From the NCBI GenBank assembly GCA_020630615.1, contig JAHDBA010000005.1, positions 38,709 through 102,708 of the forward strand: DNA of 64,000 nt, in the 5' to 3' direction. The translations under genes and the position numbers were made by a program. This document shows, in pieces, positions 11,806 to 38,306 of the stretch. Position 1 is the first letter of the stretch, and the number at the start of each line of letters is the position of its first letter. Origin of the DNA: Myxococcota bacterium. Its GTDB lineage: Bacteria; Myxococcota; UBA727; JAHDBA01. The notes beneath the pieces were generated by a model. That model was not told where the DNA came from and did not search any database. It saw only the letters and a list, made by a program, of their open reading frames with translations.

Positions 11806-14800
11806 ATGATCAATATAAAACATACTTTTGTAGGAAAATCGAGTCGAATAGAGTTCGTCTTACCACTCTTCCTTTCAATCGTATTTTTTGCGCCCATTTC
11901 GTTTGCTCAGTTTGCAGAGGGGCCCACTGGAATTACAATTCCTGATTCGTGCACAGATATCGATTCTTGGTGTCCGAACAGTGCGAATTGTACAGATCAC
12001 GACATGAGTGTTGATGGCAACCCTTTGACGATCACAGGCGGTGGTGGGATTGGCCAGTGTCATTGTGTTCTCGGAACTTCGGGTAGCGATAGTTTACAGA
12101 TTGATAATCCGCCAAATGCGGTTGATATCTATGTATGTTTCAACGCAGGAATCGATGTTAACTCGCTAATTAATGGTACAAGCCCGAGCGATATCACATG
12201 GCATATCAATGGTGGAGCTGGCGACGATGCATTAAGTGGATCGAACAATAACGACTTCATTGATGGTGCAGCAGGCGATGATGTCATCAATGGTGGAAAC
12301 GGAGACGATCAGATCACCGGCGGCGATGATAACGACGAGATTTATGGTGGAGACGGCAATGACTTCCTCGAAGGCAACGATGGGTCGGACACAATAGACG
12401 GTCAAGCTGGAGATGATGTTGTTTTGGGTGGACCGGGTAACGATGGAGATGTTTCGAATTGTGATCACAACCAAACCGTTCCTCCAGCAGGTCTCTTTGG
12501 TGGGCCAGGTACTGACAGTGTTCAAGGTGGTGATGGTGATGATTGTATCTTCCTTGGTGATGGTAATGAGAACTTTTACAATAATGTTCAAGGGAACCAA
12601 GGTGGCGGCTACGGCGGTGCTGGTAACGACGTTATTTATGGCGGTAGTGGCAACGATACGGTTGATGGTCAGTCTGGCAATGACATTGTAAACGGTGGTC
12701 CGGGCAATGATCTTGTTGGTGGCGGGACAGGTAACGATCATGTGAACGGCAATGAGGGGGTCGACACAGTGAATGGTAGTGGTGGCACCGATGAGTGTGT
12801 CGATATGGGTGATGGTGATCCCGACTACAGTTCAGAAGGATTTGGGGGCTGTGAACAGTTCACTTATGCGTCGATTGATAAGGTTAGATTGAAAGACCAA
12901 AATGGATCAATGCTGCTAGAATGGTCAACAGCCTCAGAAGCTTCAACTCTTGGTTTCAAAGTTATTGGGTATGATGCTTTGAATCGTGCACATTTAATTA
13001 CGGAATTTGTCCCTGCAATCCCAAATGGTGGTGGGGGCTCGGATTATCAAATCCATCTAACGGACAGATATGAGCGAATTGATATTCAGGAAATAGGTCA
13101 AAACAACTTTGGGAACAGGTTTTCTCTCAAGGTTCAAGAGCTTCAGCAAAACAATCGTGCGACAAAGGTTTACCAATCCTCTTCAATAAGTTCTGCTCGT
13201 CTCCAACCTGTCAAACATGAAAGAGTCATTGATGCGCTCGATAATCTTTCCCCGATTCATGAGGCCATTGTCGAGGTCAGCAATGAAGGGTGGATATCGA
13301 TATCGCCTTCAACTTTAGCACCGATTATGGGGTATAGCATTGAAGAAATTCAAAGAGCTGCGGTGGAAGGAAATCTACGAATAACTCTTAATGGTGAGTC
13401 GGTTGCTTACCGTGCGATTCCATCAACGGGGATCGAATTTTATGCAAGGAAACCGTCTTCTCTTTATCAAAACTATGATGCCTATCGAGTGGAGTTGCAG
13501 GAAGGGCGAAAGCTTGTTGATGGTGAATGGTTTGAGCTTAGTGCTACGAATACGATAGCGACCATGTCGGTGAATGAAAAATTTGAAGTCAATAATTTTG
13601 CAGGGACAGCGATCGCAAACTCCGCGAATCAGGATTATTGGTATTGGGCAGCAATCGCACGATCAGCGTCTGTTCCAGACTTTGAAACCGAACTTACCCT
13701 AACGCAGGATCCAACATCATCGGTTGCTCTCAATATTCTATTACGTGGTGCATCGGTTGCCTTGCACACCCGTCATCAGGTTGATGCTTATGTTGATGGT
13801 GTTTTGTTAAAAACTTTGACTTTCTCAGAAAAAGAAAGTGGCATTTTAGAGTTCGATGTTCCAAGAGAACTCATTCACGATAAGAAAGTTCATTTGAGTC
13901 TGCGCATGAGCACTTCCGCGAGTGCACAAAGCGTCGTCTATATTGATCGAATAAAAGCTAACTTTTCAAGTGCTGAGAACCTAGCTGCAGATGTCGTGCA
14001 TGGCACGGACGGTCATCACACCTTAAGTGTGACTGAAGGGGTTGCAGGTCGTATTGTTTCCGCAAGTGGAAACTATTTTGAAATTGGAGCAGACTCCACT
14101 CAACGAAGTATTCAACTTTCGGAATCTTTTGTCTGGTTGCCACTGAAAAAATCTATTGCTCAGTTTCGAGTGCGTCCTCGTCGCGTTGTTAATATTAGTA
14201 ATAGTGTTGAGCATCTAGTTGTAACGAAACGTGCTTTGGCGATAGAGGCCAATCAGCTCGCAGCGCATCGATCGCGTTCAGGGTTTCGTAGTCAAGTTGT
14301 CTATTTTGATGACATTGCGGACACCTTTGGTGCTTCTCAGAACGATCCCCGTGTAATCCATCGCTTGATTCGTGAACTGTCAGAGTCTTTAAAATACGTC
14401 GTCCTCTTTGGTAGTGGTAATTTTGACTACAAGAACCACTATGGTTTGGGTGCAGGTCATTTACCCCCAATGATGATTTCTTCGAGTGATGGAGGAATCG
14501 TTGTGAGTGATCAGCTTCTTGGTGATACGGATGGTGATCTTGAAATGGACGTTGCGATTGGTCGAATCCCAGTTGAAACGAAGGACGAGGCCCAAACCTA
14601 CATTACGAGTTTGATTGAATATGAAGAGAACCTAGCAAGCCGCAGTTATGGACCGATCGAACTTCTTGCAGATGCACACCGTGATTCGATTTCAGATTTT
14701 GACCGTGATATTGATGCCTTCTCCAGCCAAGTCAACGTTGATATTGATGTGGAGCAAATGTCAGTTGACAGCGTGTCAAGTCCCGAAGAGCTTTCGGACA

Positions 14801-15534
14801 TGCTTCAGGAAATGCTTCAAGAGAATCCAAGAGCCTTTGTCTACGCCGGACACGGTGGTATCGATCGTATCACAAAATCTGGGTGGCTATCACCAGAGCT
14901 GATGACTGAACTCCGCTCTCAAATGTCTTCTCCTCTACCCTTTGCGAGTTTGATGACGTGTCATGCGGGTTCTTTTGCGCATCCACGTGTGCGCGGCTTT
15001 GCCGAGGCGCACATGTTGGGTGAGAATCCATTTGCACTTGCGTGGATTTCTGCAGGTGCTGCAACGATTGATGTTGATAATCGTATTTTGGGTCAGGCAA
15101 TTATGAGGGAAGCAGGTTCAAATCTTGGAAACGCTCGGATTGGAGATTTAATGCGTTCAGCATTAGCGAGCACGATTGAGCGGGATGAAGAGCTTCGACA
15201 TAACCATCTTGCGTATAATCTTTTGGGTGATCCTGCGATGCTTCTGCCTCGGCGTCATGCGGGCAATACTTTGAATGCCTATGAAGCAAGAGAAATCCCA
15301 AGTGCAGGAGTGAGAGTTGACTCATTGTTGAGTGAACATAGTGTTGTGACGAACACCAATACGTTTGGTAACTTTGATGAGAAACTACACACATCAACGA
15401 TGAGTCAAGGCGTGGATCGAGGTTGTGCCACATCGTCATCCTCGCCATTTCTAACCTTGTTTGGATTTGCGCTTATCCTGTGGCGGCGTAATGCATGGCA
15501 GAATCAAAACGAATCGATAAAGCATTTTAAATAA
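11806..15534 (+). CDS. Secreted RTX-repeat / gingipain(C25)-like cysteine peptidase with C-terminal sorting-type tail
   Basis: N-terminal TM/signal. About 20 GGxGxDxUx nonapeptides (GGAGDDVINGGNGDDQITGGDDNDEIYGGDGND...) at nt ~12200-12800. C25-like block: DVAIGRIPVETKDEAQTYITSLIEYEE, then His in VYAGHGG and Cys in LMTCHAGSF at clan-CD dyad spacing. The C-terminus is GCATSSSSPFLTLFGFALILWRR. Confidence 0.6.
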   Translation: MINIKHTFVGKSSRIEFVLPLFLSIVFFAPISFAQFAEGPTGITIPDSCTDIDSWCPNSANCTDHDMSVDGNPLTITGGGGIGQCHCVLGTSGSDSLQIDNPPNAVDIYVCFNAGIDVNSLINGTSPSDITWHINGGAGDDALSGSNNNDFIDGAAGDDVINGGNGDDQITGGDDNDEIYGGDGNDFLEGNDGSDTIDGQAGDDVVLGGPGNDGDVSNCDHNQTVPPAGLFGGPGTDSVQGGDGDDCIFLGDGNENFYNNVQGNQGGGYGGAGNDVIYGGSGNDTVDGQSGNDIVNGGPGNDLVGGGTGNDHVNGNEGVDTVNGSGGTDECVDMGDGDPDYSSEGFGGCEQFTYASIDKVRLKDQNGSMLLEWSTASEASTLGFKVIGYDALNRAHLITEFVPAIPNGGGGSDYQIHLTDRYERIDIQEIGQNNFGNRFSLKVQELQQNNRATKVYQSSSISSARLQPVKHERVIDALDNLSPIHEAIVEVSNEGWISISPSTLAPIMGYSIEEIQRAAVEGNLRITLNGESVAYRAIPSTGIEFYARKPSSLYQNYDAYRVELQEGRKLVDGEWFELSATNTIATMSVNEKFEVNNFAGTAIANSANQDYWYWAAIARSASVPDFETELTLTQDPTSSVALNILLRGASVALHTRHQVDAYVDGVLLKTLTFSEKESGILEFDVPRELIHDKKVHLSLRMSTSASAQSVVYIDRIKANFSSAENLAADVVHGTDGHHTLSVTEGVAGRIVSASGNYFEIGADSTQRSIQLSESFVWLPLKKSIAQFRVRPRRVVNISNSVEHLVVTKRALAIEANQLAAHRSRSGFRSQVVYFDDIADTFGASQNDPRVIHRLIRELSESLKYVVLFGSGNFDYKNHYGLGAGHLPPMMISSSDGGIVVSDQLLGDTDGDLEMDVAIGRIPVETKDEAQTYITSLIEYEENLASRSYGPIELLADAHRDSISDFDRDIDAFSSQVNVDIDVEQMSVDSVSSPEELSDMLQEMLQENPRAFVYAGHGGIDRITKSGWLSPELMTELRSQMSSPLPFASLMTCHAGSFAHPRVRGFAEAHMLGENPFALAWISAGAATIDVDNRILGQAIMREAGSNLGNARIGDLMRSALASTIERDEELRHNHLAYNLLGDPAMLLPRRHAGNTLNAYEAREIPSAGVRVDSLLSEHSVVTNTNTFGNFDEKLHTSTMSQGVDRGCATSSSSPFLTLFGFALILWRRNAWQNQNESIKHFK

Positions 15535-15604: not shown

Positions 15605-16771
15605 TCATTCACACTGACTTCGTTCACACATTTTTTCTGCGCGCTCCCGAGAACTCTTTTCATAACTCCGAGTGCGATAAGGCTCTCTCAAGAGTTGGTG
15701 CCAAGTGCCAAACATATCATAAATAAATTCTCTCACCTGTGCGTCATCAAAACTCATGCTTTCCGTATAATAGCCCATCGCGTTGTCTTGGTTACCAATC
15801 CAAAAGTTTTCAATATGTCCTAGGCCGAGAACGTGCCCAAGTTCATGTGCATGGGTTTGAGAGTTCTCCCAATGTTTGGCTTCGATAAGATAAGCTCCAA
15901 GATCATACGAGCCCATTCCAGCGGGGTCGAGTGTTGTTCTGCCGGGGATTTCCTCACTCGCGCGTTCAGGGATATTTTCAACCATCAATCCTATTATCGC
16001 TCCCTCTGGGACTTGATCGATTGATGAAACATGACGAGTTTTCACTCGAGTTTTGACATCGGCGCTCACATTCGCGTCTTCGCCGTATCGCCCTTCGGCC
16101 AATGCAACGATTTCCCCAAAGGCATTCACGTTGAAAAAACGGCCGCCTTCTTCACTAAGTGGCCAGATTGAAATATCGTTCACTGAAAACTCATCACGAA
16201 TTTCAGAGCTTGGAAAGAAATCCGTCTGTCTTGGCCCCACAACATAAACATCGATACTTGCTTCAATGTTCATATGAATCTTTCCTGTAAGTGGGTTGGT
16301 ACGTAGTTCCGTCACAAAAGCTCTGGGTTTATGACGATCCTGTTCACAAATGTTCGGGGCTTCAATTTGAAATGTAACTTCGTCTCCCGTGTAGACCGCA
16401 ACACAATTCCGACCACCCATCAGTGGATGTGTTTCTTCACAATCAATAAGATAAGAAATATCAGGCAGGAGTGCATCATATTCTTGAATCAACTTGCCAA
16501 GTGCGCTCGCTGCAATCTTTTCAGTGCTTGAGCTAGCGACTTCGATGGTGTTCTCAATGTTACAGGCCTCATTCAACCCCTTCACCTTCAACCCGCTCAA
16601 CTTATCCCACCGAACAACATAAGCCTGCATGTCATGATTCGAGTAGCTTTGAATAACACCAATCTGTTGCGCTTCCTGGAGTGCCTCCCTCTGTTCTTGC
16701 TCACTGCCGTTCACAAGACGATCAAAAAGGACCTGCCAACGTTGGGTGGTTTGGGTGTCGATGCGTGCCAT
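15605..16771 (-). CDS. Metzincin-type zinc metalloprotease (HExxHxxGxxH)
   Basis: HELGHVLGLGH zinc-binding consensus followed by a Met-turn-like NAMGYY. No obvious signal peptide at the annotated N-terminus. Confidence 0.6.
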   Translation of the reverse strand: MARIDTQTTQRWQVLFDRLVNGSEQEQREALQEAQQIGVIQSYSNHDMQAYVVRWDKLSGLKVKGLNEACNIENTIEVASSSTEKIAASALGKLIQEYDALLPDISYLIDCEETHPLMGGRNCVAVYTGDEVTFQIEAPNICEQDRHKPRAFVTELRTNPLTGKIHMNIEASIDVYVVGPRQTDFFPSSEIRDEFSVNDISIWPLSEEGGRFFNVNAFGEIVALAEGRYGEDANVSADVKTRVKTRHVSSIDQVPEGAIIGLMVENIPERASEEIPGRTTLDPAGMGSYDLGAYLIEAKHWENSQTHAHELGHVLGLGHIENFWIGNQDNAMGYYTESMSFDDAQVREFIYDMFGTWHQLLREPYRTRSYEKSSRERAEKMCERSQCE

Positions 16772-18121: not shown

Positions 18122-18254
18122 TTAAAAGTCTATAGAAATCAGCTGCATTCATCTTTATTCTCGATGAGAAGGGCTAAAAACATGCGTTCGTAATCAGACT
18201 TCGCTACTCTAAACATATGATACAAAATCATGCTGTCCAGAGTAGGTGTATGCG

Positions 18255-28714: not shown

Positions 28715-29722
28715 ATGCCGAAAGATCATAACCTGTCTTTGGATGCCAGTGCAGGCGGCAAGCTCGTTATTGCCGGCGAATATGCGGTACTTTTAGGGTG
28801 CGAAGCTTGGGTTATGCCGACCTTGGCAAGGGCCCATGTTCGAATCGAGACGATGCAGGCGAGCGCTTCTTCAGGACTGATGACACTGAAAAACTACAAG
28901 ACCCATCCACGAAAGAGCCCTCTGAGTAAGCATCTGATTTCAAAGTCAATTGAATGGGGTTGGTTGAATGAAAAAAAATTGTCATTGGATTACGAGTTAA
29001 CATTCGACTTTCAAAGTTCCGAGTTCACACATGGTGACACAAAGCTTGGTCTGGGTTCATCCTCTGCATTGACTCTTGCATGGGTAAGAGCTTTGAGGGC
29101 TTATCATGAATCTTTAAAAGACTCTCAACACCAAAAAAGATTCGAAAGTGAAGCCAAGCATGCGTATCAACTGCACGATTCTTTTGGCGGAGGCTCAGGA
29201 ATCGACATCGCACAGGCCTTATCCGAAAAGCCCATTCTTTTCTCAATGACACACGATTCCGATGGGAAAGTTCTTCGGCGAATCAAGGACGCTCCACCAT
29301 TGGCATTCCCTTGGCGCCCATTAACCTTCTTTGTTGGACACGCGCAAAACACACGTCCCTTTGTGAGGGCCTTTGAACATGCCTATCGTCATCAGAAGAA
29401 CAAAGTCGATACTGCGATTCGAGAAATTCGAGAAAGCTCTCAAGGAATGATCGACCTGGCCTTTCAGGGCGATGACTTCTCGCACTTTTTAGAGCATGTT
29501 TCTCGACATGCAGCTGCTATGTCCGAATTGGGAATGCATATTGATGTTGATATTGTGTCCCATGAACATCAAGAGATAATTCGATGGGCAAAGGCGCATG
29601 GGGGCGCTGCGAAACCCAGTGGTGCTGGTGGGGGCGACATCGCCTTGGCTTGGATTCCCCAAGAGCATTTAAGTTCAGCGCTATCCACCTGCCCACTCAA
29701 ACCCATGGAGCTCTTAAAATGA
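28715..29722 (+). CDS. GHMP kinase, probable phosphomevalonate kinase
   Basis: GHMP motif LGLGSSSALTLAW. Second GHMP kinase in the mevalonate cluster, distinct from mvk. Assignment is by context. Confidence 0.6.
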   Translation: MPKDHNLSLDASAGGKLVIAGEYAVLLGCEAWVMPTLARAHVRIETMQASASSGLMTLKNYKTHPRKSPLSKHLISKSIEWGWLNEKKLSLDYELTFDFQSSEFTHGDTKLGLGSSSALTLAWVRALRAYHESLKDSQHQKRFESEAKHAYQLHDSFGGGSGIDIAQALSEKPILFSMTHDSDGKVLRRIKDAPPLAFPWRPLTFFVGHAQNTRPFVRAFEHAYRHQKNKVDTAIREIRESSQGMIDLAFQGDDFSHFLEHVSRHAAAMSELGMHIDVDIVSHEHQEIIRWAKAHGGAAKPSGAGGGDIALAWIPQEHLSSALSTCPLKPMELLK

Positions 29723-30336
29723 AACCAATGAACGATGATGCTGCACATGAACTTGAACGGGATCGCGTCGTTTCTTCGGACGATGATCTTCTAATATGCG
29801 TTAACCCTGACGATGAAGTCATTGGGTACGAGCGTAAAGACCGTTGTCATAAGGGTGAGGGCCTACTGCACCGCGCATTCTCAATCTTTCTTTTTAATGA
29901 CGCCGGTGAACTTCTTTTACAAGAGCGCGACATATCCAAACTCTTATGGCCGAGTACATGGTCGAATACGTGCTGTTCGCATCCGCGTAAGGGTCAGAGT
30001 ATCGAAGAGGCAGCAGGTATTCGACTGCGCGACGAACTGAATTGTGAAGCGAGGCTGCAAAAGGTGTATACCTTTCGCTACCATGCGTCGTATCAAGATC
30101 GTGGTAGTGAGAATGAAATGTGCACCGTTCTTATTGGACACTTGAATCACACTCCCAACTACAATCGAAATGAGGTTTCGAGAATGAAATGGACGAGTGC
30201 TCAAGAACTCGAAGGCGAGCTTATTGCAAAACCCATGGACTACACCCCATGGTTTCGAATGGAGTTTCAAGAGTTGAGAACATCGTTTTGGCCGCAGATT
30301 GAAAAGGTGATTGCTCAAGGGAAGGGGAATTCATGA
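29719..30336 (+). CDS. idi: Isopentenyl-diphosphate delta-isomerase, type 1 (Nudix)
   Basis: HRAFSIFLFN...LLLQERDISKLLWPSTWSNTCCSHP matches the type-1 IDI catalytic core. Start ATG 29719 overlaps the upstream stop (ATGA). Confidence 0.8.
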   Translation: MKPMNDDAAHELERDRVVSSDDDLLICVNPDDEVIGYERKDRCHKGEGLLHRAFSIFLFNDAGELLLQERDISKLLWPSTWSNTCCSHPRKGQSIEEAAGIRLRDELNCEARLQKVYTFRYHASYQDRGSENEMCTVLIGHLNHTPNYNRNEVSRMKWTSAQELEGELIAKPMDYTPWFRMEFQELRTSFWPQIEKVIAQGKGNS

Positions 30337-31391
30337 ATACTTATCAGCGCTCGCTTCAAAAATGGGAGCATCCAATTGGGGTCGAGCTTCTACGGGATTT
30401 CCCCGCAGAGCAGAGTCGAAGGATGGAAGCGAACTCCGAGTGTGCCTTTGGCAACACAATATTAAGGGCCATGGCTCGAAGACATCTTGAGAACAAAGGA
30501 AAACTCTTACGCGCCCATTTACCCTTGTGGATTGGTGAAAACCTTGGAGGAGCGATTCAGCATGCAATGCACCTTGGTGTTGCATGTGAGTTGATGCACA
30601 ACGCAACACTTGTTCACGATGACATTCAAGATGGGGACACGCATCGTCGTGGTCAGCCCACACTGTGGAAGCGCTACGGTATTGCACAAGCGATCAATGT
30701 TGGCGACGGACTCTTTTTCTATGCTCAGAAACGTCTGCACGAGATTGATGACCCTGCTCTAAGCCTGGAACTCTCTAAACTTGTATCCTCCGCTTTGCTT
30801 TCTACAATTCAAGGTCAAACACTTGAACTTGATTTTCAAGAATGGAAATCCTCACTTGAAAGTTTAAAAACGAAGCAGGAGCAATTGGTGCCAACCTATT
30901 TTGAAATTGTACGTGCGAAAACAGGAGCTCTTTTTTGCGCCGCTTCGCTTGGCGGTGCCAAAATTGCAGGGATGCCCCAAGCACTCAGGGACACGCTTCG
31001 TGATTTGACGCTCGAGCTTGGAGAACTCTTTCAGGTTCAGGACGATTACCTTGATCTGGTTGGAGACAAAGGACGCACTTCGAAAGCAAATGATATCGCG
31101 GAAGGCAAGTTGTCCTACCCTGTTGCGCGAGCGTTGAGTCAATCCAATCTTGGGGATGCTTCGATGTCTGAGTTGATTGCGATACTTTCATTAAGCCGAG
31201 AACAAACTCGAAGTGAAGATCGAAGCAAAGCGCTTGAACTCTTGGAAGATTCGGGTTCGTTGAAAGATACTCAGGCATGGCTGCAAAGGCGAGTTGACGA
31301 TTTTGGTGAAAAAGCGTCCCGAGAATCAAGCTTTGAGCTCTTATTGGGTTTGGCTGAATACATGGTAGCACCTCTAGCCGATTTTCTCTAA
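30333..31391 (+). CDS. Polyprenyl diphosphate synthase (FPP/GGPP synthase family)
   Basis: First DDxxD LVHDDIQDGD and second FQVQDDYLD aspartate-rich motifs. 4-nt overlap with idi. Confidence 0.8.
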   Translation: MNTYQRSLQKWEHPIGVELLRDFPAEQSRRMEANSECAFGNTILRAMARRHLENKGKLLRAHLPLWIGENLGGAIQHAMHLGVACELMHNATLVHDDIQDGDTHRRGQPTLWKRYGIAQAINVGDGLFFYAQKRLHEIDDPALSLELSKLVSSALLSTIQGQTLELDFQEWKSSLESLKTKQEQLVPTYFEIVRAKTGALFCAASLGGAKIAGMPQALRDTLRDLTLELGELFQVQDDYLDLVGDKGRTSKANDIAEGKLSYPVARALSQSNLGDASMSELIAILSLSREQTRSEDRSKALELLEDSGSLKDTQAWLQRRVDDFGEKASRESSFELLLGLAEYMVAPLADFL

Positions 31392-31513
31392 AAGCACGGT
31401 GCAAGTTTGTCGATGTTGCTCGAGCTTCAATTCGATCGTGTAAAAGCTGCTCAGCGCCTTGTCGTTCGTCAGTGGTGAATACGCTTAATGAGCTGTCTTA
31501 AACGCTTGGCAAG

Positions 31514-32980
31514 TTGAATTGTGCGTGGGATGCTAAGGGTGTGAGTGAAGAAAGATCGAAACGTTCATCTAGGGTTCCAGGCTTTTACACTCAAGGCCGG
31601 GAGCAACGTTTTCGCGCGCTTGGTGCTGAAGGCATCCATTTTACCAAAGAAGAGAAATTAGCTCTTGACGAGGGTGGGCTGACGTTAAAACGGGCTGAGA
31701 ACATGATCGAAAATGTTCTTGGGCTTTACAGTTTGCCTTTTGGTGTCGCACTGAACTTTCGCATTGATCACGAAGATCTTTTTATTCCGTTGGTGGTTGA
31801 AGAACCGAGTATTGTTGCTGCGTGTTCAAATATTGCAAAGCTTAGCCGAGCGGGCGATGGTTTTATCACTTCGTCTGAAGCATCTGTTATGAAAGGACAG
31901 ATCCAAATACTTTTTAATGACGCTTTTGGGTTGAATACCTTTAAGCAGGCCTTTGAAAATGCAAAACCATCTCTTCTTGAGAGTGCCAATCGCTTGTGTC
32001 CTGGTTTAGTATCACGGGGTGGTGGTGTTCTCGCTCTGCGTTTTCGTACTCTTCCACCCAATGCCAGATCCAAGTACCATCAGGGTTGGAGCTCGCCAGA
32101 CACAATCATGGGAGTTGTGGAGCTTCACGTCGATTGCATCGATGCAATGGGCGCCAATATCATTAACAGTGTTTGTGAGGGCATGCGCTTCGAGCTCCAA
32201 CAACGCTTTAACATACAAACTCATATCGCGATTCTTTCCAATCTGGCCGATCTACGTTGTGCTGAAGCACGCGTCGAAATACCTCTTCACGCTTTAGCCG
32301 GAAAAGAATCCAAGGACTCAACGCCTGATGAGAGCCAACGCTATGTTGAAGGTTTGCAACAAGGACATCGAATTGTCTCTGCGTATGAAATGGCGTTGCG
32401 CGATCCCTATCGTGCTTGCACCCATAACAAAGGGATCATGAACGGCATTGATGGGGTTGCGGTTGCAACAGGGAATGACTGGAGATCGATTGAGGCTGCG
32501 GCACATGCTTATGCAGCATTATCAGGTCAATATACGACCTTATCACGCTTTCGAGTTTCAAGGGACGAGCAAAACTTGGAGTGCGAGTTACGAATGCCAA
32601 TGGCGGTTGGTACGGTAGGCGGATCCATTTTGGTTCATGAGGGTGTTCGTGCTGCGCGCGCACTCTTGGGGGCTAGGGCGGAAAAAGCGGGTGAACTTGC
32701 GCGGGTTATGGTGGCCGTCGGCCTTGCACAAAATATCGGTGCGCTTCATGCGCTTGCCGGTGAGGGGATCCAGCGCGGCCACATGAGCCTTCATATTCGT
32801 CAGGTTCTCCTTGAAATTGGTGCAGCGTCTCACGAAATATCAACACTCAAAGAGCAGTTGATAGCGACGGGAGAACTCAACCGTCAAGCAGCCCGAGCCG
32901 CCTTGAAGGCACTCAGAAATAAAGACTGCAAAGAACCGAAAGATAAGCTTGTGATGTCGAAGTTGAAGCGGGAAGGATGA
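31514..32980 (+). CDS. mvaA: HMG-CoA reductase, class II
   Basis: VPGFY..., DNMIENVLGLYSLPFGVA and PLVVEEPSIVAACSNIAKL match class-II HMGR. The 31514 codon is TTG. An alternative GTG at 31541 has an AAGGG RBS. Start is uncertain. Confidence 0.8.
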   Translation: MNCAWDAKGVSEERSKRSSRVPGFYTQGREQRFRALGAEGIHFTKEEKLALDEGGLTLKRAENMIENVLGLYSLPFGVALNFRIDHEDLFIPLVVEEPSIVAACSNIAKLSRAGDGFITSSEASVMKGQIQILFNDAFGLNTFKQAFENAKPSLLESANRLCPGLVSRGGGVLALRFRTLPPNARSKYHQGWSSPDTIMGVVELHVDCIDAMGANIINSVCEGMRFELQQRFNIQTHIAILSNLADLRCAEARVEIPLHALAGKESKDSTPDESQRYVEGLQQGHRIVSAYEMALRDPYRACTHNKGIMNGIDGVAVATGNDWRSIEAAAHAYAALSGQYTTLSRFRVSRDEQNLECELRMPMAVGTVGGSILVHEGVRAARALLGARAEKAGELARVMVAVGLAQNIGALHALAGEGIQRGHMSLHIRQVLLEIGAASHEISTLKEQLIATGELNRQAARAALKALRNKDCKEPKDKLVMSKLKREG

Positions 32981-35422: not shown

Positions 35423-35801
35423 GTTTAGCCTTAGAGATCGTTTGAGGAGTTTTCGTTTTGCTGGACGTGGGCTCAAAGACATGTGGGCCAATGAACACAA
35501 CTTTCGAGTGCAATTGTTCGCCGGTCTCGCAATTGTTTTTGTGGGCCTGGTTTTAAAATTTGTAGCGTGGGAATGGCTGGCTGTGTTTCTATCGATTGGT
35601 GTCGTACTCGCCTTGGAGGTCATGAACACTGCGCTTGAAACCTTTTGTAATTATGTCTCGCCGGAGCGGGATGATACCATTGGGCGCGTGAAAGATCTTT
35701 CTGCCGCAGCTGTACTGCTGGGTGCAATGACATCGGTGGTGATTGCTCTGATCGTAGTGTTCTCAGCACTGTCACGACTTTGGGTGGGTTCGCTTCAATG
35801 A
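35415..35801 (+). CDS. dgkA: Diacylglycerol kinase
   Basis: DgkA-like: three TM segments, with ALEVMNTALE and RVKDLSAAAVLLGA matching the E. coli DgkA catalytic region. 128 aa. Confidence 0.8.
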   Translation: MNKFSLRDRLRSFRFAGRGLKDMWANEHNFRVQLFAGLAIVFVGLVLKFVAWEWLAVFLSIGVVLALEVMNTALETFCNYVSPERDDTIGRVKDLSAAAVLLGAMTSVVIALIVVFSALSRLWVGSLQ

Positions 35802-36796
35802 ATCGATCCCATTCATTTCTACATACGCTGCAAATTGGAGCAACCCTTTGTGGGTTGGTGGCATGGACTGCTTGTACCAATGCGAGTGCCGAAGATGGAG
35901 GATTGTCGGTACACAACGATAGTAACGAAGCACACAATTCCAGTCCGAAACGAAAGCGAGGTGAAGCTACGAAATCCCGAGAGGCAAGCCCCGTGTTGGA
36001 GAAGTTTTCAGGCAATCAAAGTGCAGGTGACCCAAAAGCTCGAGAACGTGAGGAACGAGACCGTCTTAACACGCTCTTGTTACAACATTCAATGCCTTAC
36101 CTTGGAAGCCCTTATAAGAGTTCCCCTTTGGGTGAAGGGGCGAGCGGGAAGTTCGATCAAGACCCTTTGTTTCGGGAGGACGCATTTGATTGCACAACAT
36201 TTGTCGAAACCGTCTTGGCTAAAGTACGTGCTGAATACAAGGGGAAGGATTGGAAAGAAGAACTGAATCGACTTCGGTATCGGAAAGGTGAGATTGGGTA
36301 TGTCCATCGAAGGCATTTTCCCTATGCGCAATGGATCTTAGATTTTCAATCCGAAGGAATATTAAAGGAGTACTCTTTTCAGATCGGGAGTGAGAATGTG
36401 CGCCTTGCGGTGAAAGATTTGACCCCAGGCTTATGGAAGAAACGGAAGAAAAAGATCTTAAAAAACCTTCCAGAGAAATTTGTTCCCTTCGGAAAAATAT
36501 CGATTCCCTATCTCCCGATTCGATGGGCATATGAACATCGAGAAGAGTTCCCAGAGGCATCAATATTAAACCTCGTGCGAATCGATCGAGAGAACATTCC
36601 AGTCCAGATTAGTCATCAAGCTCTTATTTTAAGGAAAGAAGGGCGATTGATAGTCAGGCATGCCCAACAACGCTTTGTTCATAAGGTCTTTGATGAAAGC
36701 CTTGAAAACTATCTGAGGCGCGTACAGAATCATCGAGAGTGGCCCGTACTTGGAGTCAATATACAGGCTCTACAGTTTTCTGCCAAAGGACTCTAA
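35798..36796 (+). CDS. Secreted/lipoprotein, hypothetical
   Basis: ATG 35798 overlaps the dgkA stop. Signal with LVAWTAC lipobox-like site. No catalytic motif recognised. Confidence 0.45.
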   Translation: MNRSHSFLHTLQIGATLCGLVAWTACTNASAEDGGLSVHNDSNEAHNSSPKRKRGEATKSREASPVLEKFSGNQSAGDPKAREREERDRLNTLLLQHSMPYLGSPYKSSPLGEGASGKFDQDPLFREDAFDCTTFVETVLAKVRAEYKGKDWKEELNRLRYRKGEIGYVHRRHFPYAQWILDFQSEGILKEYSFQIGSENVRLAVKDLTPGLWKKRKKKILKNLPEKFVPFGKISIPYLPIRWAYEHREEFPEASILNLVRIDRENIPVQISHQALILRKEGRLIVRHAQQRFVHKVFDESLENYLRRVQNHREWPVLGVNIQALQFSAKGL

Positions 36797-36812
36797 CTCA
36801 TCGCCCGCTCAT

Positions 36813-36890
36813 GAATGAAGGCAAAAAAAAGACGCCCTTCACCATGAAGGACGCCCGAGTTGTTAACCAGGAGATGAATCCAATATCTCA
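36813..36890. repeat. Intergenic repeat element copy 1 (A-run + hairpin + tail)
   Basis: GAATGAAGGCAAAAAAAAGACGCCCTTCACCATGAAGGACGCCCGAGTTGTTAACCAGGAGATGAATCCAATATCTCA. Near-identical copy 130 bp downstream. Confidence 0.7.
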
Positions 36891-36942
36891 ATTGCGCTTT
36901 GACTATCGGTAGTATTACGGAGTCGTGCTTGGATGTACTCTT

Positions 36943-37021
36943 GAATCGAGGCAAAAAAAAAGACGCCCTTCACCATGAAGGACGCCCGAGTTGTTAACCA
37001 GGAGATAGATTCAATATCCCA
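36943..37021. repeat. Intergenic repeat element copy 2
   Basis: Same ~79-bp sequence, with one extra A and three substitutions in the 3' tail. Confidence 0.7.
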
Positions 37022-37082
37022 TTCGAATACGTTTTTGCCTATAGGTCATTGATCGTAGATCGAGGCCGCATAAAGTCTGGGC

Positions 37083-38306
37083 ATGTCGTTACGCGCTTGG
37101 CCTCGGATCATATTCCATGCAGACATGGACGCCTTTTATGCTGCCATCGAAGAACGGGACAATCCAGAGCTTGTAGGAAAACCAATAGTCATAGGTTCAA
37201 GCGGACGCGGCGGTATTGTCTCCACAGCCAATTACGTTGCACGTCGTTTTGGGATTCAGTCGGCTCAGCCGGGCTCAGAAGCTTTGCGACGATGCCCGCA
37301 AGCGGTATTCGTTAAGCCTCGTCTTTCGCATTACAAGCGAGTTTCGGAGCAAATATTTTCAATATTTCACAGATTTTCCCATCGTGTGGAAGGCCTATCC
37401 TTGGACGAAGCATTCTTGGACATGTCGGGTACCCAAAGTCTAATGGGTGAGCCTAAAGAGGTTGCACGTCGTCTTAAAGACGCGGTGTTTGAGAAAACCC
37501 GACTTCGAGTTTCGGTTGGTGTGGCAACTCAAAAGTTTATTGCGAAGATCTGCTCTGACCTAGAAAAGCCAGATGGTTTGACGTTATGCCCCCCAGGGTT
37601 TGAGCAGGAGTTTTTGAGACCTCTAAAGGTTGAGAAAATCTGGGGTGTAGGCCCTGTGAATGCAAAACGACTTCATGCGATGGGGCTTCATACCATTGGT
37701 GATGTTGCAGACACACCATTCGAGAGTTTACGTGGGCATCTCGCTTCTTTCGGGGAGCACATTTACAAGCTCTCACATGCTCAAGATACGCGAGAAGTCG
37801 GCGGCGCTCGAGTCCGGAAACAAATCTCAGAAGAGCGCACTTTTAACACAGATTTAAATGCTCAAGAATGTTTAGAGCGTTGCACTCCACTTTTGGATGA
37901 CGTTTTGAAGCAAGCGCGCAAACGCGATGTTTTTGCCCGAGTGTTACGTATTAAAGTGAAGAGTGTGAACTTTAAAGTTTCTACGCGGCAAAAGACATTC
38001 GTACGATCGACTCGAGATCGTAGCGAATGTCTCGATGCGATGCGTGAGCTTTTCAACACGCTTGATGTCCAGGGGCCCTTTCGGCTTGCAGGTATCGGGA
38101 TTAGTGAGTTGAGTGGTGAAGCTCAACCTCATGAAGTCGCAAAGGCGTCTCAGCGCGATCTCTTTGACATCGAGCGCACAACGCAAAACCATTCAAGCGT
38201 AGCAGATGTGCCAAAAGCCAACGCGCAATCCCGTGAAGAATTAGAAAACACCCTTGATCAAATTCAAGAGCGTTTTGGTGCATCTGTAATTCGGCGTGGC
38301 AACTGA
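37083..38306 (+). CDS. dinB: DNA polymerase IV (Y-family)
   Basis: IFHADMDAFYAAIEERDNPEL Y-family N-terminus, SLDEAFLD catalytic motif, and HhH region. Has a ~50-aa C-terminal extension relative to E. coli DinB. Confidence 0.85.
   Translation: MSLRAWPRIIFHADMDAFYAAIEERDNPELVGKPIVIGSSGRGGIVSTANYVARRFGIQSAQPGSEALRRCPQAVFVKPRLSHYKRVSEQIFSIFHRFSHRVEGLSLDEAFLDMSGTQSLMGEPKEVARRLKDAVFEKTRLRVSVGVATQKFIAKICSDLEKPDGLTLCPPGFEQEFLRPLKVEKIWGVGPVNAKRLHAMGLHTIGDVADTPFESLRGHLASFGEHIYKLSHAQDTREVGGARVRKQISEERTFNTDLNAQECLERCTPLLDDVLKQARKRDVFARVLRIKVKSVNFKVSTRQKTFVRSTRDRSECLDAMRELFNTLDVQGPFRLAGIGISELSGEAQPHEVAKASQRDLFDIERTTQNHSSVADVPKANAQSREELENTLDQIQERFGASVIRRGN

Follow-up and report, generated by a model that had tools for sequence, protein, structure and literature searches.

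Tandem pairs of small RNAs are a familiar kind of bacterial gene. In Pseudomonas aeruginosa, PrrF1 and PrrF2 are near-identical, are arranged head to tail and end in identical Rho-independent stem-loops, while their surroundings differ (PMC2851614). AbcR1 and AbcR2 of the alpha-proteobacteria are tandem, independent units that each expose an anti-Shine-Dalgarno motif and end in a Rho-independent terminator (PMC3712013). Within the Myxococcota, the tandem Pxr paralogs of Cystobacter exemplify lineage-specific small RNAs that were duplicated side by side (PMC5568312). Here we analyze two copies of an intergenic element in a 64-kb stretch of DNA (hereafter, the window) from a poorly known lineage of Myxococcota. 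We propose, with a probability of about 0.55, that the two copies are a tandem pair of independently transcribed ~53-nt small RNAs encoded on the minus strand. The features observed directly at this locus are the repeat, a terminator shape specific to one strand, the pattern of conservation and the position of a promoter-like motif.

The element appears to resemble PrrF1/2 and AbcR1/2 in layout, not in sequence. As in the PrrF system, the predicted genes are tandem, near-identical and located in one intergenic region, and have identical terminator hairpins. The PrrF RNAs, however, are 114-116 nt in length and Fur-regulated, whereas the RNAs predicted here are approximately half as long and show no sequence similarity to them. 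The PrrF system also features the long PrrH-type read-through transcript, whereas the present locus is known from sequence alone. With AbcR1 and AbcR2 the element shares the tandem layout, an exposed anti-Shine-Dalgarno-like motif and a terminator. In contrast, the AbcR RNAs form three hairpins and carry UCCUCCC in a loop, whereas a single hairpin is predicted here and CUCCU is located at the extreme 5' end; no sequence is shared, and no Rfam match came near threshold. The Pxr RNAs, whose phylum is nearest to the host, are likewise tandem, lineage-specific duplicates, but they depend on sigma-54 promoters and adopt multi-stem structures; on reading the sequence, no GG-N10-GC motif was seen at our locus, nor anything else convincing of the sigma-54 type.

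A scan of the whole window with Rfam gathering thresholds returned only a tRNA, elsewhere in the window, and no family at the locus. When positions 36600-37200 were scanned by E-value, the best sub-threshold families were mmgR/suhB (RF00519, 15 bits) and the Bacteroidetes FopS (RF04319, 16 bits). In both of these families, as in the element, a single-stranded motif precedes a terminator hairpin and a U-tract, but the scores lie far below the gathering thresholds (41 and 56; E = 2-9). The alignments cover nothing but the generic terminator, and membership in either family was rejected. The G+C-rich 12-bp stem, the 3-nt loop and the immediately following U8-9 are also those of a canonical intrinsic terminator. 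The element differs from such a terminator in that it ends no protein-coding gene and includes a conserved 19-nt segment and a promoter-like motif.

Both copies are located in a 286-bp intergenic region (36797-37082) flanked by two plus-strand genes. The left neighbor (35780-36796) encodes an AmiA-like/DUF1460 protein with a signal or lipoprotein-like N-terminus, and the right neighbor is dinB, which starts at 37083 or at 37125 (the start in the source annotation; P0121, 393 aa) and ends at 38306. This is the context, between a lipoprotein gene and dinB, that the first-pass annotation had assigned. The predicted RNA genes are oriented divergently from dinB and convergently with the AmiA-like gene, and copy 2 is only ~60 bp away from dinB. 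The same annotation had seen no minus-strand gene upstream, and an ORF check of the region agrees, with no minus-strand ORF found upstream of either hairpin. The sole minus-strand ORF of the region, of 53 codons (36793-36954), crosses hairpin 1 and its U-tract. On the plus strand, neither folding nor a terminator scan found a terminator between the AmiA-like gene and dinB.

Several minor sequence features are present in and around this intergenic region. A sigma-70-like site, TTGGCA-17-TATATT (10/12 matches), lies on the minus strand at 36758-36786, directly downstream of terminator 1, and faces the 3' end of the AmiA-like gene in the antisense direction; three such sites occur in the region, against 3.3 expected, and chance may account for it. 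On the plus strand, a weak promoter-like pair, TTGATC-16-TAAAGT (37049-37076), would place a +1 approximately at the ATG at 37083; a dinB transcript from this site would have no leader with the start at that ATG, and one of 42 nt with the start at 37125. Two 8-bp palindromes, ATTCGAAT (37021-37028) and CCTATAGG (37038-37045), lie between copy 2 and dinB.

The first-pass annotation reported two copies of the element, 130 bp apart, each with an A-run followed by GACGCCCTTCA-cca-TGAAGGACGCCC. All of this was confirmed: a 31-mer taken from the core has exactly two matches in the window, compared with 0.00 expected from shuffles; the start-to-start distance is 130 bp to the left of the A-run and 131 bp to its right; and the A-run (A8 in one copy, A9 in the other) and the sequence after it are present in both. 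In-register comparison of the two units delimits the full extent of detectable similarity to 36808-36893 for unit 1 and 36938-37024 for unit 2 (both on the minus strand), approximately 86 bp each, with unrelated sequence between them. The earlier description of a near-perfect repeat of 78/79 bp holds as far as the repeat itself is concerned but overstates its identity, which over the span given there, with six mismatches and one indel, is ~91%.

The differences are not evenly distributed. A 53-bp core (36823-36875 and 36954-37006) is identical between the copies, the sole difference being A8 versus A9. The flanks of this core match at 12/15 positions on the left and 12/18 on the right, that is, 24/33 in total (73%), which is well above chance (p ~6e-8) and below the core (Fisher p = 8e-5); at the identity rate of the flanks, 53 identical positions would be expected with a probability of 5e-8. 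Beyond each unit, similarity falls to the chance level, with 9/38 (the spacer) and 6/38 identical positions in the adjoining 38 bp. Likewise, the 44-bp stretch that separates the units shows no relation to the 44 bp 3' of unit 2 (9/38). Tandem Repeats Finder reported nothing at the locus, and given this silence and the unrelated sequence between the units, a simple tandem array with a 131-bp period was ruled out.

Read along the minus strand, the conservation profile thus consists of a semi-conserved promoter motif, a variable stretch between the -10 hexamer and the predicted +1, an invariant segment of the size of the predicted transcript, and divergence shortly after the U-tract. To judge from the sequences, this is the profile that a small gene with its own promoter would produce. 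Conservation of the core is judged here from two paralogs, in which the stem is identical. Gene conversion between copies 131 bp apart could be another source of the perfect core; conversion tracts would not be expected to end at the predicted +1 and at the terminator.

On the minus strand, the core reads AUCUCCUGGUUAACAACUC-GGGCGUCCUUCA-ugg-UGAAGGGCGUCU-U7/8, that is, 19 unpaired nucleotides (AUCUCCUGGUUAACAACUC) followed by a 12-bp hairpin and by U8 or U9. Predicted small RNA 1 (36823-36875, minus strand; 53 nt, both ends predicted) would comprise AUCUCCUGGUUAACAACUC, the hairpin and U8. Predicted small RNA 2 (36953-37006, minus strand; 54 nt) would have the sequence of RNA 1 with U9 (-17.5 kcal/mol, z = -2.95). 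The two hairpins, each with a 12-bp stem and a 3-nt loop in the predicted fold, occupy 36830-36856 and 36961-36987. The T8 tract of terminator 1 (36823-36830) and the T9 tract of terminator 2 (36953-36961), which would give the U-tails, follow the stem without a gap, the first T falling on the last stem position. The 5' segment, a putative seed that contains CUCCU, spans 36857-36875 in RNA 1, where it is unpaired in both the minimum free energy (MFE) and the centroid structure, and 36988-37006 in RNA 2, where it is unpaired in the fold as well; all 19 positions are identical between the copies.

Folding of both strands, proposed as a check in the first-pass annotation, gave -17.5 kcal/mol for the minus-strand 53-mer (z = -3.1; hairpin alone, z = -5.2) versus -9.7 kcal/mol for the plus strand (hairpin alone, -7.9 kcal/mol). 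The minus-strand stem, described earlier as 11-12 bp with G-U pairs followed by U8-9, has 12 pairs (6 G-C, 3 A-U and 3 G·U) in front of T8/T9. The plus-strand stem, put earlier at only ~6 bp, has six contiguous pairs and two more. The plus strand folds more weakly because the three G·U pairs turn into A·C mismatches. All three non-Watson-Crick positions of the stem are thus G·U on the minus strand, for which we estimate a chance probability of ~0.005-0.01. As far as can be read from the stem, this one-strand pattern is the signature of a constraint at the level of a minus-strand RNA, not of a DNA palindrome.

The same pattern bears on the reading of the element as DNA. In that case, a dimeric transcription factor in control of dinB or its neighbors would bind the palindrome CCTTCA-N3-TGAAGG, present as two operator copies, and the phased A-tracts would bend the DNA. 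The perfect 6+6-bp inverted repeat with its 3-bp spacer, located upstream of a DNA-damage gene, fits such a function. Outward from there, however, the symmetry continues only by way of positions that pair as G·U on one strand (the chance of ~0.005-0.01 given above), as expected for an RNA and not for a protein-binding site. Moreover, the identical block of 53 bp is far longer than an operator needs and ends in a T-tract, and no LexA-box-like palindrome was recognized by eye between copy 2 and dinB or elsewhere in the region. We consider a DNA operator very improbable.

Both hairpins are conspicuous among the terminator-like sites of the window. In a scan for hairpins followed by a run of at least six T, the two sites rank first at -17.2 kcal/mol, the next reaching -14.5 kcal/mol; the remaining sites are much weaker, and most of them lie within coding sequence. 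In a laxer scan, three T-rich sites within coding sequence exceed the pair on energy. The two sites possess the longest uninterrupted T-tracts among the terminator-like sites of the 64 kb. The laxer scan also recovered plausible terminators of this style at gene ends, for example behind acnB and behind the gene at 15605-16771, which indicates that the terminator shape is one used by this genome. These models point to each element having the shape of a strong minus-strand intrinsic terminator without a gene to terminate. In screens for small RNAs, terminators of this orphan kind are a recognized criterion (PMC2330248).

An orphan terminator might equally be just that. According to this explanation, the two hairpins would be intrinsic terminators without a functional RNA product, acting as insulators or left over from a lost minus-strand gene. 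As insulators, they would keep minus-strand transcripts initiated near the divergent dinB promoter region from entering the AmiA-like gene in the antisense direction. The strong terminator shape and a position that would shield the convergently oriented AmiA-like gene agree with this possibility, and the tandem duplication could supply a back-up terminator. Two observations are left unexplained, however: the 19/19 identity upstream of the stem, next to flanks of 73% identity and a random spacer, and the extended -10-like motif that both copies share 7 nt upstream of the identical block. For the lost-gene version, there is no room in the ~60 bp between copy 2 and dinB. The duplicated terminator remnants suggested in the first-pass annotation are thus insufficient to account for 19 identical nucleotides beside diverged flanks, and terminators without an RNA product appear unlikely.

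The shared motif has the form TGnGATATT, that is, a TGn element and a hexamer whose second base is A and whose sixth is T. It was identified as an inferred extended -10-like sequence on the minus strand in both copies, TGAGATATT at 36882-36890 with a predicted +1 at 36875, and TGGGATATT at 37013-37021 with a predicted +1 at 37006. The first base of the -10 hexamer is G instead of T. In both copies, counting 7 nt downstream from the hexamer leads to the predicted +1, an A with which the perfectly conserved block begins. The copies differ at the 'n', at three of the six nucleotides between the hexamer and the core, and further upstream. Only five sites of the class TGNKATAWT occur in the window on both strands, and two of them are these motifs. 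Even for a liberally defined extended -10 element, a rate of 1.1e-3 per position gives a probability of ~0.003 for a chance occurrence at the right offset. A possible, weak -35 element, TAGGCA (37036-37041, minus strand; 4/6 match), was read from the sequence 17 nt upstream of the -10 of copy 2; it has no counterpart in copy 1.

A third TGNKATAWT site, TGCGATAAT (47788-47796, plus strand), falls within the longest intergenic region of the window (47767-48164, 398 bp), located between divergent genes. This region could contain a long leader or another non-coding RNA.

From the features described above, we infer transcription itself, the exact ends of the RNAs and regulation by base pairing. Transcription of each gene would depend on an extended -10 promoter of its own (TGnGATATT), start at the A of AUCUCC and stop at the 12-bp hairpin with U8/9, to yield an RNA of ~50-54 nt. 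The hairpin and the U-tail would serve as the usual module for stability and chaperone binding, and the unpaired 5'-terminal 19 nt with CUCCU would pair with Shine-Dalgarno regions (AGGAG) of mRNAs, which may block ribosome binding or alter mRNA stability. Many genes of the window carry AGGAG-type ribosome-binding sites, and because CUCCU is complementary to such sites, their occlusion is the natural proposal. When the 19-nt segment was compared with 42 start regions of the 64-kb window, the duplex energies were no better than those of shuffled seeds; occlusion of ribosome-binding sites is thus not supported statistically among these start regions. No match to hfq, csrA or proQ was found by tblastn within the window.

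Among the 42 start regions, the second-best duplex involves the SPFH/Band-7 gene (38311-39132, minus strand) that adjoins dinB. Its ribosome-binding site region (~39135-39155) reads CAACCAAGGAGAUCC, and the site itself, AACCAAGGAGAU, would pair with nucleotides 1-11 of the RNA with one bulged A (-13.9 kcal/mol). The energy is not significant compared with shuffled seeds, and we note this pairing as a lead only.

The first-pass annotation had also named a small antisense RNA as one option. The small-RNA part of that suggestion agrees with the identical core, the diverged flanks and the -10-like motif; with respect to the antisense part, we prefer stand-alone RNAs. The label antisense would require read-through from the AmiA-like gene into dinB. 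A transcript of that kind would be complementary to both RNAs over their full length, which makes a cis-antisense role in dinB expression an alternative sub-mechanism.

A bolder version of the small-RNA reading would make the two genes the founding pair of an undescribed, minimal RNA family of ~50 nt, reduced to a 5' seed and a terminator, that functions as an anti-Shine-Dalgarno mimic or in cis-antisense. The 5'-terminal AUCUCCUGG would then mimic the anti-Shine-Dalgarno end of 16S rRNA, and the RNAs, expressed divergently from dinB, would tune the translation of mRNAs with Shine-Dalgarno sequences; alternatively, as cis-antisense RNAs, they might uncouple dinB from read-through of the upstream gene. 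We regard this proposal as doubtful.

Repeats arranged in tandem within an intergenic region are a typical feature of type I toxin-antitoxin loci. Accordingly, a coding explanation of the repeat was considered, in which it encodes a small protein or, as in Ibs/Sib-like type I systems, a plus-strand mini-ORF under the control of an antisense RNA. An ORF that begins with an ATG in the hairpin loop (MKDARVVNQE...) is indeed present in both copies, with 22 and 25 codons. This ATG, however, is not preceded by a Shine-Dalgarno sequence, and the peptides, unlike the hydrophobic type I toxins, are hydrophilic. Beyond the core, five of the six nucleotide changes alter an amino acid, the C-termini and lengths of the mini-ORFs differ between the copies, and any ORF across the A-run is put out of frame by the difference between A8 and A9. 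A coding function of the repeat is scarcely credible.

The preferred reading, a pair of small RNA genes, was further compared with that of a dispersed intergenic repeat family, a REP, MITE or similar element that carries a terminator hairpin and landed twice in adjacent positions. The occurrence of two copies in one intergenic region, each with a hairpin, is what such a family could yield, and a REP/MITE-like repeat was among the options of the first-pass annotation. The window, however, holds no further copy, whether searched with the 31-mer, with a 17-mer allowing up to 3 mismatches or by blastn-short with a word size of 7. Nor do the units possess terminal inverted repeats, their only inverted repeat being the central hairpin, and for want of these the MITE reading was rejected. 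Outside the window, the element was sought in 185,579 reference genomes, JGI metagenomes, viral contigs, plasmids and phages, and no match to it was found in these collections. With neither terminal inverted repeats nor a third copy in 64 kb, the REP/MITE option is unsupported, and we judge an origin from a dispersed family to be decidedly improbable.

The 19-mer has a single exact match in the 185,579 GTDB reference genomes (one per species), in a Chloroflexi MAG (L002 4918-4936). This match is the reverse strand of an ordinary ribosome-binding site and start codon (AGGAGATAAATCGAAATG), and it was rejected as a homologue and taken to be a chance match. It does show that the conserved segment, read on the plus strand, resembles a generic ribosome-binding site. 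A 22-mer had no match in the JGI metagenomes, and a degenerate pattern of the seed and a T-run yielded 51 matches in metagenomes, the number expected by chance, none of them with the hairpin of the element. A pattern scan of viral contigs (IMG/VR) and BLASTN searches of plasmid and phage collections gave no match.

The flanking genes were used as another route to relatives of the locus. The nearest homologues of the AmiA-like protein and of DinB are only 49% and 45% identical, respectively, too distant to lead to orthologous loci, and the one homologue contig inspected was not syntenic. ClpX is one of the most conserved bacterial proteins, and the ClpX of this host is ~62-67% identical to its nearest relatives in the databases. 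The AmiA-like protein, DinB and ClpX, the three window proteins searched, each form a single-member cluster, and their nearest named relatives come from Myxococcota or 'Deltaproteobacteria' MAGs. Judged from these protein sequences, the host is a very isolated Myxococcota-like MAG lineage.

To our knowledge, no small RNA is known in this deep-branching, uncultivated, Myxococcota-like lineage. If expressed, the RNAs would give a very isolated bacterial lineage its first proposed riboregulators and would represent a compact small RNA, composed of a seed and a terminator, that is kept in two identical copies; the adjacency to dinB hints at a possible connection with the DNA-damage response. If not expressed, the locus would be merely a duplicated orphan terminator of little consequence.

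Elsewhere in the window, three genes encode large proteins of a secreted type (11806-15534 and 18246-21332 on the plus strand; 39307-41469 on the minus strand). Two of these proteins contain many cysteine-rich acidic repeats (TIGR02232 myxo_disulf_rpt / DUF4215), and one, of 1242 aa, has a PorU-like type IX secretion sortase domain in addition to RTX-like calcium-binding repeats. A cluster of mevalonate-pathway genes on the plus strand (27719-32980) includes those for diphosphomevalonate decarboxylase and an NAD-type HMG-CoA reductase.
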